Origin: Escherichia coli
Lineage (GTDB): Bacteria > Pseudomonadota > Gammaproteobacteria > Enterobacterales > Enterobacteriaceae
Direction: 5' to 3' (one strand)
Length of the DNA stretch: 64,000 nt
Assembly (NCBI RefSeq): GCF_030013595.1
Contig: NZ_CP122768.1
Shown: piece by piece, positions 4,499 through 8,874 of the stretch
Position numbering within the stretch: position 1 is the stretch's first letter
Layout of the letters: each line of letters opens with the position of its first letter
Position numbers and translations under genes: made by a program
Notes under the pieces: model-generated
Seen by the model: the letters and a program-made list of their open reading frames with translations, nothing else
Told to the model about the DNA's origin: nothing
Databases searched by the model: none

Positions 4499-4864
4499 AT
4501 GATAAATCTTCCCGCAGGCACAAAAATCTGGCTGGTTGCCGGTATCACCGATATGCGCAACGGCTTCAATGGTCTCGCCGCAAAGGTGCAGACAGCGTTG
4601 AAAGATGACCCGATGTCCGGCCACGTCTTCATCTTCCGGGGCCGCAGCGGCAGTCAGGTCAAACTGCTGTGGTCCACCGGCGACGGACTGTGCCTGCTGA
4701 CCAAAAGGCTGGAGCGTGGCCGCTTCGCCTGGCCGTCGACCCGCGATGGCAAAGTGTTCCTGACGCCGGCGCAGCTGGCGATGCTGATGGAAGGTATCGA
4801 CTGGCGACAGCCAAAGCGGTTACTGACGTCCCTGACATGTTGTAGCCCAGGTCTTCTTCGTTGA
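4499..4864 (+). CDS. IS66-family orfB (TnpB-like accessory protein)
   Basis: MINLPAGTKIWLVAGITDMRNGFNGLAAKVQ...FIFRGRSGSQVKLLW...DGLCLLTKRLERGRFAWP matches the conserved IS66 Orf2 family. Confidence 0.75.
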   Translation: MINLPAGTKIWLVAGITDMRNGFNGLAAKVQTALKDDPMSGHVFIFRGRSGSQVKLLWSTGDGLCLLTKRLERGRFAWPSTRDGKVFLTPAQLAMLMEGIDWRQPKRLLTSLTCCSPGLLR

Positions 4865-5684
4865 TAAAGTTCACATCCAGAGGATGGATACTTCCTGTAG
4901 CCCGTAATATCGTCGGTTCAATATCCTGCACATTCATCGGGATCACCGATGCAAGAAAAGCCCATTGATCAGAATAAGGCTGGAAATTAATATCAACAAA
5001 AACGCTTCCCCCCGATGCACGCGGTCTTTTTTGCAGAGGTAACGCGATAAGATTACCAAATCCTCCTTTTGGCATAGTATCCTGATTAGGAAATAATCGG
5101 TCATAAGAACTCAATTGCAGCTGTCGGGTCCGGCTGCACGTATAGCTAATAATAGCAGTCCCCAGACGGCGAGCTTCGCGGGCCGAAACTCGTGAAGCAA
5201 AAAATATCCAGACATGCGCTCCCTGACGTGAGCGGGATATTTCCAGCGCAGCAGGTACACTCAGCTCATCACAGGCTCGCATGAACGCGGATGCATCCTT
5301 CTGCCATTCAGCTTTATCAAAATCAACAGCCAGAAAATAACAGGAATCATCTTCCAGCAACGGATATAACCCGGCAGTATGCGTGCCTGCCAGATGCTGG
5401 TAGATGACAAGATCAGATACAGGGAGTAACTGACGGTGCGTACAGTCCCCGCATTTTATCCGGGGTTTACCGCATATTCTCGCCTGCCATTCGTTAGCGC
5501 AGGCAGGAGAGTACCCTGATTTGCCGCTGGTTTTACTTTCCCAACGAAGGGCCCATATATCATCACGCCCACGAAACAACCGACGAAATAATGCAACCTT
5601 CTCGTCGGTGGATAATACGGAAACGCGCTGCACAGGGCTCGGCGGTTTACGTCGCCATTCCAAGTAATGAGACCAGACGGGCAT
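4850..5684 (-). pseudogene. archaeo-eukaryotic-type primase-polymerase-like protein, N-terminal fragment; C-terminus replaced by the IS66 remnant (boundary approximate)
   Basis: ORF 4659..5684 contains DxD-like YFLAVDFDKAEW and sGxH-like SRQGAHVWIFF motifs plus Cys cluster CGKPRIKCGDC; its last ~60 codons are antisense to IS66 orfB, so the gene is truncated near 4850. Confidence 0.35.
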
Positions 5685-5887: not shown

Positions 5888-6451
5888 TCAGTTGTGTCGT
5901 GGTCGGCCCCGGTTACTTTTTTCGGGAAGCCTGCTACGGCCCAGAATAATACCGTGTTCTTTCTGATCCTGTTTAGCCAGGTAGCTGAGGGCGTAACGTA
6001 AGTCGTCTACCGCGGACTTATCACTATAGTGAATCACGTGATCGATACGCACCGGGTATTTATCTTTAGCCCGGCACAGATGAAAATAACCATCCCCTTC
6101 CGTGATCCGCCTCCAGATATCTCCCAGTTGCCTGGATATCTGATAAGAGTTCTTGTGACGTTGTCCATCCAGGTAGCCGATAAAATGAATATGAAGCCCT
6201 TTGTCTGGTGTATATTCCATAACCCAGTAATATCCTGCCAACATCGTTTGGTTTTCGCTAAGTAAACGGTATATTTCCATACACATACTGTGCTTACAGG
6301 AATGCCCGAAACTGGGCGTGTATTTCCTGTAGGCAAAATCAATTCTGAAAGGTAACAGTTTAGAAAAACGTTGAAACAGACCTTCCATGTGTTCATTCAC
6401 ATCTTTCAGAATCGCGAAATTCATTTCGTAATTGGGATTGGCATTATACAT
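5888..6451 (-). CDS. YagK/YfjJ-family (inovirus Gp2-like) prophage protein
   Basis: 187-aa ORF; resemblance to the YfjJ/YagK C-terminal domain family found in CP4-type cryptic prophages (by recall). Confidence 0.5.
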   Translation of the reverse strand: MYNANPNYEMNFAILKDVNEHMEGLFQRFSKLLPFRIDFAYRKYTPSFGHSCKHSMCMEIYRLLSENQTMLAGYYWVMEYTPDKGLHIHFIGYLDGQRHKNSYQISRQLGDIWRRITEGDGYFHLCRAKDKYPVRIDHVIHYSDKSAVDDLRYALSYLAKQDQKEHGIILGRSRLPEKSNRGRPRHN

Positions 6452-7423
6452 TTTATAGTCCTTACTTTATAAAATTCACAGGAAGAGGGAATTACGTAAA
6501 TACTGAGAGTACATAAACGCCGTACCACGGCATTAATAAACGAGGTAACCAGCAGTACAGACAACCTGATAAAACTGTTTGGTATTACCTCATTACAATG
6601 AGGTAATACTTCAGAATACAGTGAGGCTCTCTTAAACAGAGGACTAGTAAGAATTACAATGGCAAAAACACACCTCATAGAATTAAGTTTAAGGAAGTAC
6701 CATTCAATCACTTACAGGAAGTAATCTGATCTTCACAAAAGTCAGCTATCGAATAGCCACAGGCAACATCGCTATTAATATTGCCGTACCATTAAGTAAA
6801 AACAGGGACTCTGCAGAGAGAGCCTACAGATATTTAACCTCACAATAAGAAGATTATTTTATACAGAAAATATTATATTTACCCATACTTATAAACTGTA
6901 ATGGAGCTATAACATACGAACTAAAGACAATATACTCTAATAGTGTTCTGGTACGTAACTAGTGTTAAATACAAACCAGACATACATTCAGTGGATTAAC
7001 TATCTCAATATTACGCTATGAGCGTAGTAACATAATTTACACATAACTAAACCCCATACACCTCCACACTGTAGTATATGGGATAGACGCATTACGCACA
7101 TACAGAATACTCAGCATAACATAAAGAGGAGTGACATTACGATAAAAAGAGACAACATAACAGATAACATAACTCCCATTAATAATACTAATTAACCTAA
7201 ATTATTTATTGAATACGAAAACAATGAAGGCCCCACCTCACCTCAGACTAAAGCCGACAATATCCTGAGCAACAGGATATCCAATAGTAAATAGTGGTTA
7301 CACCAGTTATATTTACTGACTGACCTGTACCAGAGTTTTCTAATACAACGCTGACATGGTAAAGGCATTAGTCTCCTCCGCAAGTAGCAGAGGAGACTAT
7401 ATGTTAGTCAACGATTAAGTTGT

Positions 7424-8874
7424 TCAGAGGTCAAAGTTAGGTGCGACACACAACGTTTTTCCCTCAATAACCGGTACAACTCTGTTTTGTTCATACAGTA
7501 AATCCAGTAACCAGTTGATTTTATCCTTTTTCCGGAAACGGTTCGGACCACGCTGTAAAATGTCATTTTTTTTCATACAGAGGATCCCCTTCTCAATGCA
7601 ATAGCTTTTTATCCAGTTGAAAAGTTCAAGCTCCTCTGGAATGAGTCGCACAGGTACGGTCAGGGCAGGGTTGTCAAAAGTTAACGGATTAGACAACCGC
7701 ACATACTCATTACCGTACCATATTGCTAATTCTCTCGCCATTTCTGCAATGTAAGGGGAAATCTCCCCCTCCTCACCGCTCGAATGGTAAATAAGTCCTG
7801 CCAGTCTTGCCATATACTCTGCATTTTTAGCAGCATATTCCCGGCAATGTCTTAAAGGCCCCAATCCCCCCAGCTTCGATTCCACATCATTGTAATAATC
7901 CGTCCAGATTCTGGCAGCCTGAGGAGAAAAGTGAAGGCAACGTCGTTCACCACTCATCGCCAGACTTTCATCAATAAGCTCATTGATCCTCTGTTCAAAC
8001 AAATCCTGATACTGTGATGAATAATTATCTCCGGTTATTATCCTTGTCCCCTGCGTTGATGTTGGTTGACACATCAAAAACCTTGCATGATGTCCTGACG
8101 TTTTCACAAGTTCTTTTTTTCGCGTACAAAAACCTTTGTGGTAAACATCAGGCTGAATCATCGCCGACATCGTCAGTCTTGGCTCCTTCAAATTAATTCC
8201 GGGAGATGATTTCCTGTCGATGAAAAGAGAACCTCCATCCCACAAAGTGTTAATAATTCCCAGTTTACTCATGGCCCGGCTGTCAAAAATTCCCCCCCTT
8301 CACTGGATACAAGAGCAAAAGAACGATTGCTATCGGAGTAATATTTTAACATTCCCTCTATCGTTGTCTCATTAAAAATTGTTCGACGTATCTGCGGCGG
8401 AACAGGAGACTTATTCAGATGCGTTTCAAGCTCTGATTCTGTTGCCTTGTAATCTTTACCGGCACGAATCTCTTTATGAAATTTTGATTCCAGCGCTTTT
8501 TGTTTTTGCTCCCATATTTCCTTTTCTGTGCTGTAATTCTCAACCAGTTTCGCGTATTCTTCCGCCAGGGCTTCATCCCTGAGATAAAATGCTTTCATAA
8601 ACACTTTATCCACGGTCGTTTTCCTTTCACCAGAATCAGCCAGAATCAGAGAGTAAAGATTAACAGGCCCACGTAAATTTCCAGGTCTGCACACGTCAAT
8701 CTGATTCTGACAGGCAATTGAGATCGCTGTTAATGCGGATGTCGCCACCATAGCCAAAGGTGCCTGTGTATTTTTTTGAGTTTCAATTATTGCATTTCTC
8801 ACCAGCGGTGGTAGTGCATATATCGGATAAGGATTTTCTGGTGCAAGTAAGCACATAAAAGCCTCTCTTTTCAT
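7424..8874 (-). pseudogene. DUF3987 (YfjI-like) protein split into 201-aa and 282-aa reading frames at a G7 homopolymer/ATGA junction
   Basis: ORFs 8269..8874 and 7424..8272 lie in different frames; coding-strand G7 tract (plus-strand C7 at 8292-8298) sits 20 nt before the junction; adding one G would fuse them into ~483 aa. Confidence 0.55.

Follow-up and report, generated by a model that had tools for sequence, protein, structure and literature searches.

The 972 nt between positions 6452 and 7423 of a 64-kb window of the Escherichia coli contig NZ_CP122768.1, to which all coordinates below refer, lie between two genes of the minus strand: the YagK-type gene (6451 to 5888), which is annotated as 'inovirus-type Gp2' and encodes a protein of 187 amino acids with the motifs of an HUH nuclease, and yfjI (8874 to 7424), which encodes a DUF3987 helicase. 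We interpret this stretch as the upstream control region of the YagK-type gene, most of it a long untranslated leader, in which a conserved block of around 35 bp at 7172-7206 on the minus strand (AATTTAGGTTAATTAGTATTATTAATGGGAGT / AATAATTTAGGTTAATTAGTATTATTAATGGGAGT) would form the promoter or operator core; the probability of this reading is put at about one in two. A nick site or origin used by the HUH-type protein is ranked second, and the two readings are compatible. Taken together, an unannotated gap of 1 kb becomes a map, which consists of a short element that accompanies a Rep-like nuclease gene and is shared by two orders of bacteria, and of a long leader that looks dispensable. If the block is only a promoter or operator, the stretch is an ordinary regulatory region; as far as we found, this cis element has not been described in the literature.

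A conserved block upstream of YagK-type genes

In relatives of the genera Erwinia, Citrobacter and Yersinia, the YagK-type gene is also preceded by 540 to 620 bp of gene-free DNA, and the similarity of these upstream regions to that of E. coli is confined to the block, AAGGTTAATTA[A/G]TATTATTAA..G[A/G]AGT, which corresponds to 7206-7172 on the minus strand. One genome per species was scanned on the basis of an alignment of 12 sequences, and the 48 loci obtained belong to Enterobacterales, to the bee-gut genus Gilliamella and to a few distant bacteria. An nhmmer profile of the block matches 41 of the 48 loci at E < 0.3, always on the sense strand and 124 to 1154 nt 5' of the gene, and no further match was found on either strand of the 0.49 Mb of sequence. 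The block or its variants GGGTTTTTAGTATAATTAA and GGTTTTTTAATATAATTAT sit 117 to 300 nt upstream of most genes, again in sense orientation; longer distances are found in E. coli (746 nt), E. albertii (582 nt), a Budvicia locus (1025 nt), locus L076 (1148 nt) and an IncI plasmid (1020 nt). Among the k-mers most conserved near the gene, those of the block are the only non-coding ones. The two tandem paralogues of Enterobacter wuhouensis (L059) each possess their own copy of the block, and the E. coli island and genome contain a single one. Identity to the window among E. coli variants mostly reaches 0.93-0.99 at 7151-7224, compared with 79-95 % in the neighbouring DNA. The block consists of around 90 % A+T and is part of the 74 nt with the lowest stability in the region, which contain 5 % G.

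The block alignment further revealed a candidate -10 hexamer, TAGTAT, at 7185-7190 on the minus strand. In its general form, TA[AG]T[AGT]T, the first T, the A at position 2 and the last T are invariant over 27 lineages, exactly the three positions that matter most in a -10 element, and a purine and GGAGT or GAAGT follow 7 to 8 nt downstream of the hexamer. Sequences upstream of the block are not conserved. In the loci L011 and L015, the upstream neighbour is divergently oriented and the gene must therefore have its own promoter in that interval, of which the block is the only conserved element.

We propose that the yfjI transcript ends at the two stem-loops at 7399-7369 and 7246-7216, and that the block at 7206-7172 is the functional core of the region, namely the core of the yagK promoter with TAGTAT as its -10 element and a start near GGGAGT. 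It would be overlapped by the binding site of an island-encoded protein, either the AT-hook/HUH protein itself or the adjacent AlpA-type helix-turn-helix (HTH) protein; such a factor is probably needed, since no -35 element is found at the block. The transcript would then carry a leader of around 730 nt, whose sequence is specific to Escherichia, evolves at an approximately neutral rate and appears to tolerate deletions of up to 190 nt. Within this leader, the hairpin and U-run at 6824-6796 may attenuate read-through, and a conserved Shine-Dalgarno region would finally lead to the ATG at 6451. The supplementary data searched for K-12 list only 3' ends near yagK and no start sites for yagK or yfjJ.

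Several observations weigh against a promoter or operator with a long leader. A -35 hexamer of 4/6 or better at a distance of 16 to 18 bp from the block is present neither in E. coli nor in the Klebsiella locus L029 or the Erwinia locus L011, and a simple promoter scan called no minus-strand promoter anywhere in 6452-7423. Moreover, conservation of the block exceeds what is usual for promoters of genes whose proteins are 30-40 % identical, and this unusual conservation points to a specific protein site, whose role is possibly other than transcription. Long leaders of 580 to 1150 nt arose independently in five lineages, which pure neutrality does not predict. Finally, G is scarce on the sense strand of the short leaders of around 20 other lineages, whereas the leader of E. 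coli is C-poor.

Anatomy, divergence and composition of the stretch

In an alignment of ten E. coli versions, the stretch falls into two parts. The segment 7225-7423 travels with yfjI: it occurs only where yfjI is the upstream gene and is replaced in the O104:H4-type and enterotoxigenic E. coli (ETEC) loci L006 and L010, where a different gene lies upstream. The segment 6452-7224, however, is kept in these two loci as well. As it is retained without yfjI and travels with the YagK-type gene, the bulk of the stretch belongs to the latter. Starting 25 nt past the yfjI stop codon, an inverted repeat forms a strong stem-loop at 7369-7399 (minus strand) with a 13-bp stem and a folding energy of -25 kcal/mol as RNA. 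It lacks a U-tract, is found in all loci with yfjI upstream and missing in L006 and L010, and is part of the yfjI 3' flank. Just upstream of the block, a weak terminator-like hairpin followed by UUGUUUUCG (7216-7246, minus strand; -10.1 kcal/mol) may mark the end of the yfjI transcript. A simple terminator scan did not call this hairpin, and L004 carries a different perfect 6-bp stem (ATGAGG...CCTCAT) at this site.

On the other side of the block, two tandem 12-nt repeats, GTTATGTTATCT GTTATGTTGTCT, were detected at 7150-7173 (minus strand) with Tandem Repeats Finder and constitute the only real tandem duplication of the stretch. They begin 5 nt past the 19-nt core of the block, so that their first two bases are inside the 35-nt block, and O104:H4-type loci carry two copies of GTGGTGGTAT in their place. 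Iterons as a general feature of these loci were rejected: the repeats are confined to E. coli lineages, and a comparison of downstream with upstream scores over 27 lineages gave p = 0.73 (Wilcoxon).

The divergence of the remaining leader was determined as identity to the window, per segment, among E. coli variants. Identity is lowest in a hypervariable middle segment at 6851-7149, which has no assigned strand: values for 6851-7150 range from 0.62 to 0.97 with up to 190 gap columns, and the deletions found there in relatives span 27 to 190 aligned columns and are not multiples of three. Identity at 6452-6850 ranges from 0.87 to 0.95, compared with 0.85-0.95 for the third codon positions of yagK and 0.96-0.99 for its first and second positions. 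Much of the stretch is thus probably unconstrained spacer, as most of it evolves at around the synonymous rate, and the leader appears to be largely free of constraint except for the distal block and the last 30 nt or so before the ATG.

Around 350 nt before this ATG, a hairpin at 6796-6824 (minus strand) followed by CCUGUUUUUAC was called as a terminator-like site and is a candidate attenuator or terminator. Its stem is weak (-8.5 kcal/mol) and the U-run lies 4 nt past the stem (10 nt in L006); due to this spacing, it is not a canonical terminator. The proximal leader at 6452-6795 (minus strand) contains several small hairpins, and around 350 nt of this sequence are retained between E. coli and E. 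albertii. It includes a perfect 13-bp palindrome, GTATTACCTCATT..AATGAGGTAATAC, at 6582-6609 (no assigned strand; -15.7 kcal/mol), which was found as an inverted repeat, extends up to 15 bp in relatives and has a variable centre. Only one-sided changes occur at this palindrome, which therefore gains no compensatory support. A perfect 17-bp palindrome, CTGCTATTGTTGCTAGC..GCTAGCAACAATAGCAG, is found in L006 at around 5110-5160, with a related version in L010 at around 5240-5290 (plus strand of those loci). In both loci, whose upstream gene is other than yfjI, it is situated at the distal end of the gap beside a 611-amino-acid protein without family match. The translation-initiation region at 6459-6489 (minus strand) contains the Shine-Dalgarno sequence AAGGA (6459-6463), which is separated from the ATG by 7 nt, as well as a pyrimidine tract, CCCTCTTCCTG, at 6479-6489, which is also present in Erwinia (15-nt match to L011). 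Invariant columns occur at the 3' end of the leader alignment, just before the ATG.

An earlier note on this DNA had described the stretch as free of substantial open reading frames (ORFs), as AT-rich, A/C-rich and G-poor on the plus strand, and as flanked by YagK-like and DUF3987 genes, all of which proved correct. The six frames contain between 15 and 31 stop codons each, with a longest stop-free run of 86 codons. The sole ORF of more than 60 amino acids, a 96-amino-acid frame with a GTG start at 6421-6711, overlaps the start of yagK and is disrupted in relatives by 1- and 4-nt indels. The plus strand contains 38.9 % A, 25.7 % T, 19.7 % C and 15.7 % G, which corresponds to a G+C content of 35.4 %, compared with 51.6 % for the whole window. 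Among all 972-nt windows of the 64 kb, only 0.4 % have a G+C content and 0.6 % a G content as low; its A+C richness is matched by 0.8 % and its A/T skew by 4.4 %. The strand asymmetry is therefore real and extreme for this window, and the A/C-rich run quoted in the note maps to 7117-7166. Repetition of ACATAA(C) is not significant after correction for the full set of 6-mers (p = 0.26).

In its AT-richness, the stretch corresponds to intergenic DNA of islands. The leaders of E. coli and E. albertii are both T-rich and C-poor on the sense strand; an excess of T over A and of G over C would be expected from transcription-associated C-to-T change in neutral DNA. This asymmetry is specific to the E. 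coli/E. albertii lineage, because in around 20 other lineages (L011-L056) the block-to-ATG leader of 100 to 350 nt is G-poor rather than C-poor on the sense strand, with 8-14 % G and a GC skew of -0.2 to -0.6. As the skews are opposite across lineages, the composition has no single explanation for the whole family. The G-poor short leaders of these 20 or so lineages resemble Rho-loading regions, to which E. coli and E. albertii are the exceptions.

Less probable readings: nick site, RNA locus or remnant of decayed genes

The protein encoded downstream of the block bears the features of a Rep-like nuclease. In the protein alignment, the histidines H87 and H89 of the HUH motif and K160 are invariant, and Y153 and Y157 are nearly so, giving the pattern Y-x-x-x-Y-x-x-K; the gene adjacent to the block hence encodes both a His-x-His motif and a catalytic tyrosine, as is characteristic of HUH nucleases. 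A C-terminal RGRPR motif, the canonical core of an AT-hook, is nearly invariant across the subfamily, with R181 and G182 fully invariant; judged from the sequence, such a motif seems unusual for a bacterial HUH-type protein and would fit an AT-rich target, in particular DNA rich in AATT. The AlphaFold model is confident (pLDDT 88.7) and its predicted fold matches HUH nucleases among others. Pfam returned only sub-threshold matches, to REP_ORF2-G2P and YagK_YfjJ_C, and a profile search of PDB sequences gave no match. Homologues are found in Salmonella, Erwinia, Citrobacter, Yersinia and other genera, where they are located on islands and large plasmids; none was detected among the inoviruses of the phage collection or on small plasmids with rolling-circle replication (RCR), and 'inovirus Gp2' is the name of a remote family. 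No published experimental characterization of the YagK/YfjJ family ('inovirus Gp2-like', formerly DUF3296) was found. The database protein P0095 is annotated as a fusion of an Hha domain and YagK.

HUH enzymes normally act on a site beside their own gene. It is tempting to speculate that the block is the cleavage or recognition site of the YagK-type protein, either a rolling-circle double-strand origin (dso) or a nick site resembling an origin of transfer (oriT), which is used after AlpA-driven excision of the island; we consider this possible, though clearly less probable than a promoter or operator. The AT-rich surroundings would then serve as unwinding region, and the YfjI helicase and the PrimPol-helicase encoded downstream would be further replication proteins; such a site could overlap the promoter of the gene, as in many RCR plasmids and in circular Rep-encoding single-stranded (CRESS) DNA viruses. 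This idea gains weight from the protein, which is under purifying selection, has a predicted fold matching HUH nucleases among others and keeps the HUH motif and two tyrosines spaced as in Reps of the phiX174 gpA type, as well as from the block: no other non-coding element is conserved, its orientation is constant, every paralogue comes with its own copy, and it is more conserved than the protein and lacks a -35 element. The block is also AT-rich and of low stability, the protein carries an AT-hook, and in E. coli the region is flanked by a helicase gene on one side and the Rep-like and PrimPol-helicase genes on the other. The core TA[AG]TATTAT is one base off the CRESS nonanucleotide TA[AG]TATTAC, which we regard as a lead only. 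Core positions 5 and 7 are variable, and a CRESS-like stem-loop was rejected because Klebsiella/Enterobacter variants (GGGTTTTTAGTATAATTAA) do not keep the 5-bp AT stem needed to display the nonamer. Further points against a nick site are the restriction of iteron-like repeats to E. coli lineages, together with the non-significant enrichment of ACATAA, the lack of an exact match to a known nick consensus (CTTGATA, TAGTATTAC), the absence of protein homologues from inoviruses and small RCR plasmids, and the presence of one block copy per island, which leaves no second 'ter' site. Matches on viral contigs do not help either: the seven that were found represent one E. coli island filed as viral and chance hits in AT-rich genomes. 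Three related Microviridae genomes of around 4.1 kb from IMG/VR (L068, L067 and L072) share the 18-mer AAGGTTAATTAATATTAT, which lies antisense to the end of a VP2-like gene and in partial overlap with coding sequence of the opposite strand; the match was judged to be due to chance. L068 is circular, with a 4,110-nt repeat of its ends. If the block is a nick site, it would provide a function for the YagK/YfjJ family and a mechanism for the replication or mobilization of these islands. The still wider proposal, that it is the nick site or origin of a previously unrecognized rolling-circle-type replication or mobilization module, which comprises an HUH/AT-hook nickase, an AlpA-type protein and, in E. 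coli, YfjI, and belongs to the backbone of the very common CP4-57/CP4-6-like islands in Enterobacterales and Orbales, is doubtful. Were it true, these 'cryptic prophage' islands would be replicative or mobilizable elements rather than inert remnants.

The other two explanations, a non-coding RNA locus and a decayed gene, had been put forward in the earlier note alongside a silenced regulatory region, and neither found support. Of the three, a regulatory region is favoured, as a leader in sense orientation, with a deeply conserved block and a conserved Shine-Dalgarno region, lies directly 5' of the YagK-type gene. A non-coding RNA, which is very improbable, would either be a minus-strand transcript of around 370 nt that begins at the block and ends with the hairpin and U-run at 6824-6796, or an A/C-rich antisense transcript of the plus strand, and might serve in regulation or as a partner of the PrimPol-helicase encoded downstream. 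The promoter-like block lies upstream of such an RNA and a hairpin with compensatory changes and a U-run downstream of it; the proximal 390 nt of the minus strand fold better than shuffled sequences (minimum free energy z = -3.2), and three independent one-sided changes in a GCCGT..ACGGC hairpin are compatible with G.T pairing in the plus strand but not in the minus strand (chance 1 in 8). However, the distal 390 nt fold like shuffles (z = -0.9), and the putative RNA body loses 100 to 250 nt in natural variants. RNAalifold, applied to 11 Escherichia leaders, returned a covariation term of +0.86 over 87 predicted pairs and hence no support; compensatory changes affect 3 of these 87 pairs, all in the hairpin at 6824-6807, and L005/L004 and L006 form different hairpins there. 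Rfam 15 gave only two chance-level matches at E <= 10, BsrC (22.2 bits compared with a gathering threshold of 38; E = 0.76) and SNORD65. In addition, there is no counterpart in other genera, where the distance from block to ATG is only 117 to 300 nt, and the PrimPol-helicase gene is missing from most block-bearing loci. Slightly less remote, but still unlikely, is that apart from its end signals the stretch is functionless filler, an unrecognizable remnant of genes that were inserted between the block and yagK and decayed. The neutral rate of divergence and the tolerance of large deletions agree with this view, and both neighbouring genes are damaged in this window. In L076, a truncated hha-like ORF (2629-2769; 61 % identical to Hha residues 23-71) occupies the equivalent space between block and YagK-type gene, which indicates that genes can be inserted there and decay. 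Residual protein similarity, however, was found in no frame: the ten longest six-frame fragments match no Pfam or PHROG family, a tblastn search with Hha/Cnu and the hha-like ORF of L076 revealed no relic in the stretch, the indels of relatives disregard the reading frame, and annotation by the Prokaryotic Genome Annotation Pipeline (PGAP) places no feature, including pseudogenes, beneath the stretch in 1,539 E. coli genomes. Nor does filler explain the retention of the proximal 350 nt in E. albertii, the recurrence of long gene-free leaders with unrelated sequence in unrelated lineages, or the conserved block itself. The description of the stretch as atypical for degraded coding sequence is fair; however, with most of the stretch evolving at a near-synonymous rate, much of it is probably unconstrained.

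Several known systems resemble parts of this arrangement. Like the origins used by HUH Reps (the dso of pC194/pUB110, the phiX174 gpA origin and the stem-loop origins located 5' of rep in circoviruses and geminiviruses), the block is a short, highly conserved AT-rich element that precedes an HUH/tyrosine nuclease gene and has the orientation of this gene, and as in circoviruses, where hexamer repeats follow the nonanucleotide, two direct repeats follow the TA[AG]TATTAT core in E. coli lineages. The block differs from these origins in that it lacks a conserved stem-loop, general iterons and an exact nick consensus, is located in chromosomal islands and large plasmids instead of small replicons or phages, and lies 117 to 1154 nt from the gene. 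The intergenic region 5' of gene II in Ff phages (f1/M13) is likewise gene-free and structured over several hundred nt, is T-rich on the sense strand and precedes a gene of the 'inovirus-type Gp2' label; however, there is no similarity in sequence or structure, morphogenetic and packaging genes are missing nearby, and the phage collection contains no inovirus homologue. The origins of Staphylococcus aureus pathogenicity islands (SaPIs) and phage-inducible chromosomal islands (PICIs) are AT-rich, iteron-flanked and positioned immediately 3' of the pri-rep genes in islands that AlpA controls, which recalls the AT-rich non-coding DNA immediately 3' of the YfjI helicase gene in an island with integrase and AlpA. 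Here, by contrast, iterons lack statistical support, the block is linked to the YagK-type gene and not to the helicase, and no capsid-redirection or packaging genes occur among the loci examined. The long 5' leaders of acquired enterobacterial genes that are silenced by H-NS and Rho are comparable in being AT-rich, untranslated and poorly conserved island leaders. Rho-loading sites are C-rich and G-poor on the sense strand, as are the leaders of most other genera studied here (GC skew -0.2 to -0.6), whereas the E. coli leader is C-poor and T-rich on this strand and therefore does not resemble a Rho utilization (rut) site.

The island and related loci

The stretch is present in 1,539 of 5,426 complete E. 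coli genomes, that is in more than a quarter, with 80-99.5 % identity and usually once per genome. In the plasmid collection it is confined to Escherichia records, and it is absent from the phage collection. At the nearest relative, the 99.5 % identical locus L001, the island adjoins tRNA-Thr and proA. An isolated 98-nt match in strain PEC41 (query 272-369) was dismissed as a stranded island fragment beside IS3.

The conserved gene order on the minus strand is an AlpA-type HTH gene, a short DUF3987 fragment, yfjI, the gap, the YagK-type gene and the gene for a 786-amino-acid 'TOTE' protein. The YagK-type gene is part of the conserved backbone of CP4-57-like integrative islands, and the TOTE gene is cargo here; virulence genes and defence systems are among the cargo of such islands. 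YfjI matches a phage DNA-helicase family (phrog 'DNA helicase'), and the TOTE protein consists of a PrimPol-type primase domain fused to a superfamily 2 (SF2) helicase. In this window, yfjI carries a single 1-nt deletion near 8292 relative to L001 (one T is missing after a run of seven G), which splits the gene into ORFs of 201 and 282 amino acids; it is otherwise identical to L001 over 1.46 kb, and the deletion may represent a genuine frameshift or an error in sequencing the homopolymer. The TOTE gene is interrupted after residue 301 by an IS66 element: the 341-amino-acid ORF at 4659-5684 (minus strand) aligns to TOTE residues 25-301, which form the primase domain, and its remainder is IS66-family sequence. 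Intact TOTE copies are found in O157:H7-type and O104:H4 strains.

An AlpA-type gene for an HTH protein of 68 amino acids adjoins the YagK-type gene in almost every enterobacterial locus, located either just 3' of the latter or just before the block. The AlpA-type (Phage_AlpA) proteins of these loci comprise 68 to 98 amino acids and match excisionase and regulator families. The antiterminator model of Pseudomonas AlpA was considered and rejected; the Pseudomonas protein is of another kind, being larger and Q-like and having GGGACG as its site, and the model is therefore not transferable to the short Phage_AlpA proteins.

The K-12 islands CP4-57 (alpA-yfjI-yfjJ) and CP4-6 (yagK) share the backbone order of alpA, yfjI, a gene of the YagK/YfjJ family and cargo. 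The yfjI-yfjJ spacer of CP4-57, however, has only 152 bp, the K-12 proteins are around 20 % identical to that of the window, and the block profile has no match at the K-12 loci. The distant paralogues yfjJ (L002, 5470-5500) and yagK (L073, 4125-4150, minus strand) of K-12 share an upstream element, TTG(G)ATAGGTA[AT]TATATA..GG (AGGT-[AT-rich]-GG). The yfjJ copy contains ATCTTGATA, which is identical to the core sequence CTTGATA at which plasmids of the pC194/pUB110 type and phiX174 are nicked; the chance of finding this 9-mer in 152 nt is around 6e-4, and it is not conserved in K-12 yagK (GTTGGATA).

Two further loci show the block in other surroundings. The IncI conjugative plasmid pNDM5_LS003 (L078, 1896-3491) has the same order of YfjI, a long gap, Gp2-type gene and AlpA; its gap of 1,596 bp is ORF-free, contains 38 % T on the sense strand and is related to the window sequence only in the block. 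In Escherichia sp. MOD1-EC7003 (L018, around 1-640), the end of an IS66-family element is inserted exactly within the block (...GCTTAC|TTATTAATGGGAG), and the upstream half of the block is gone.

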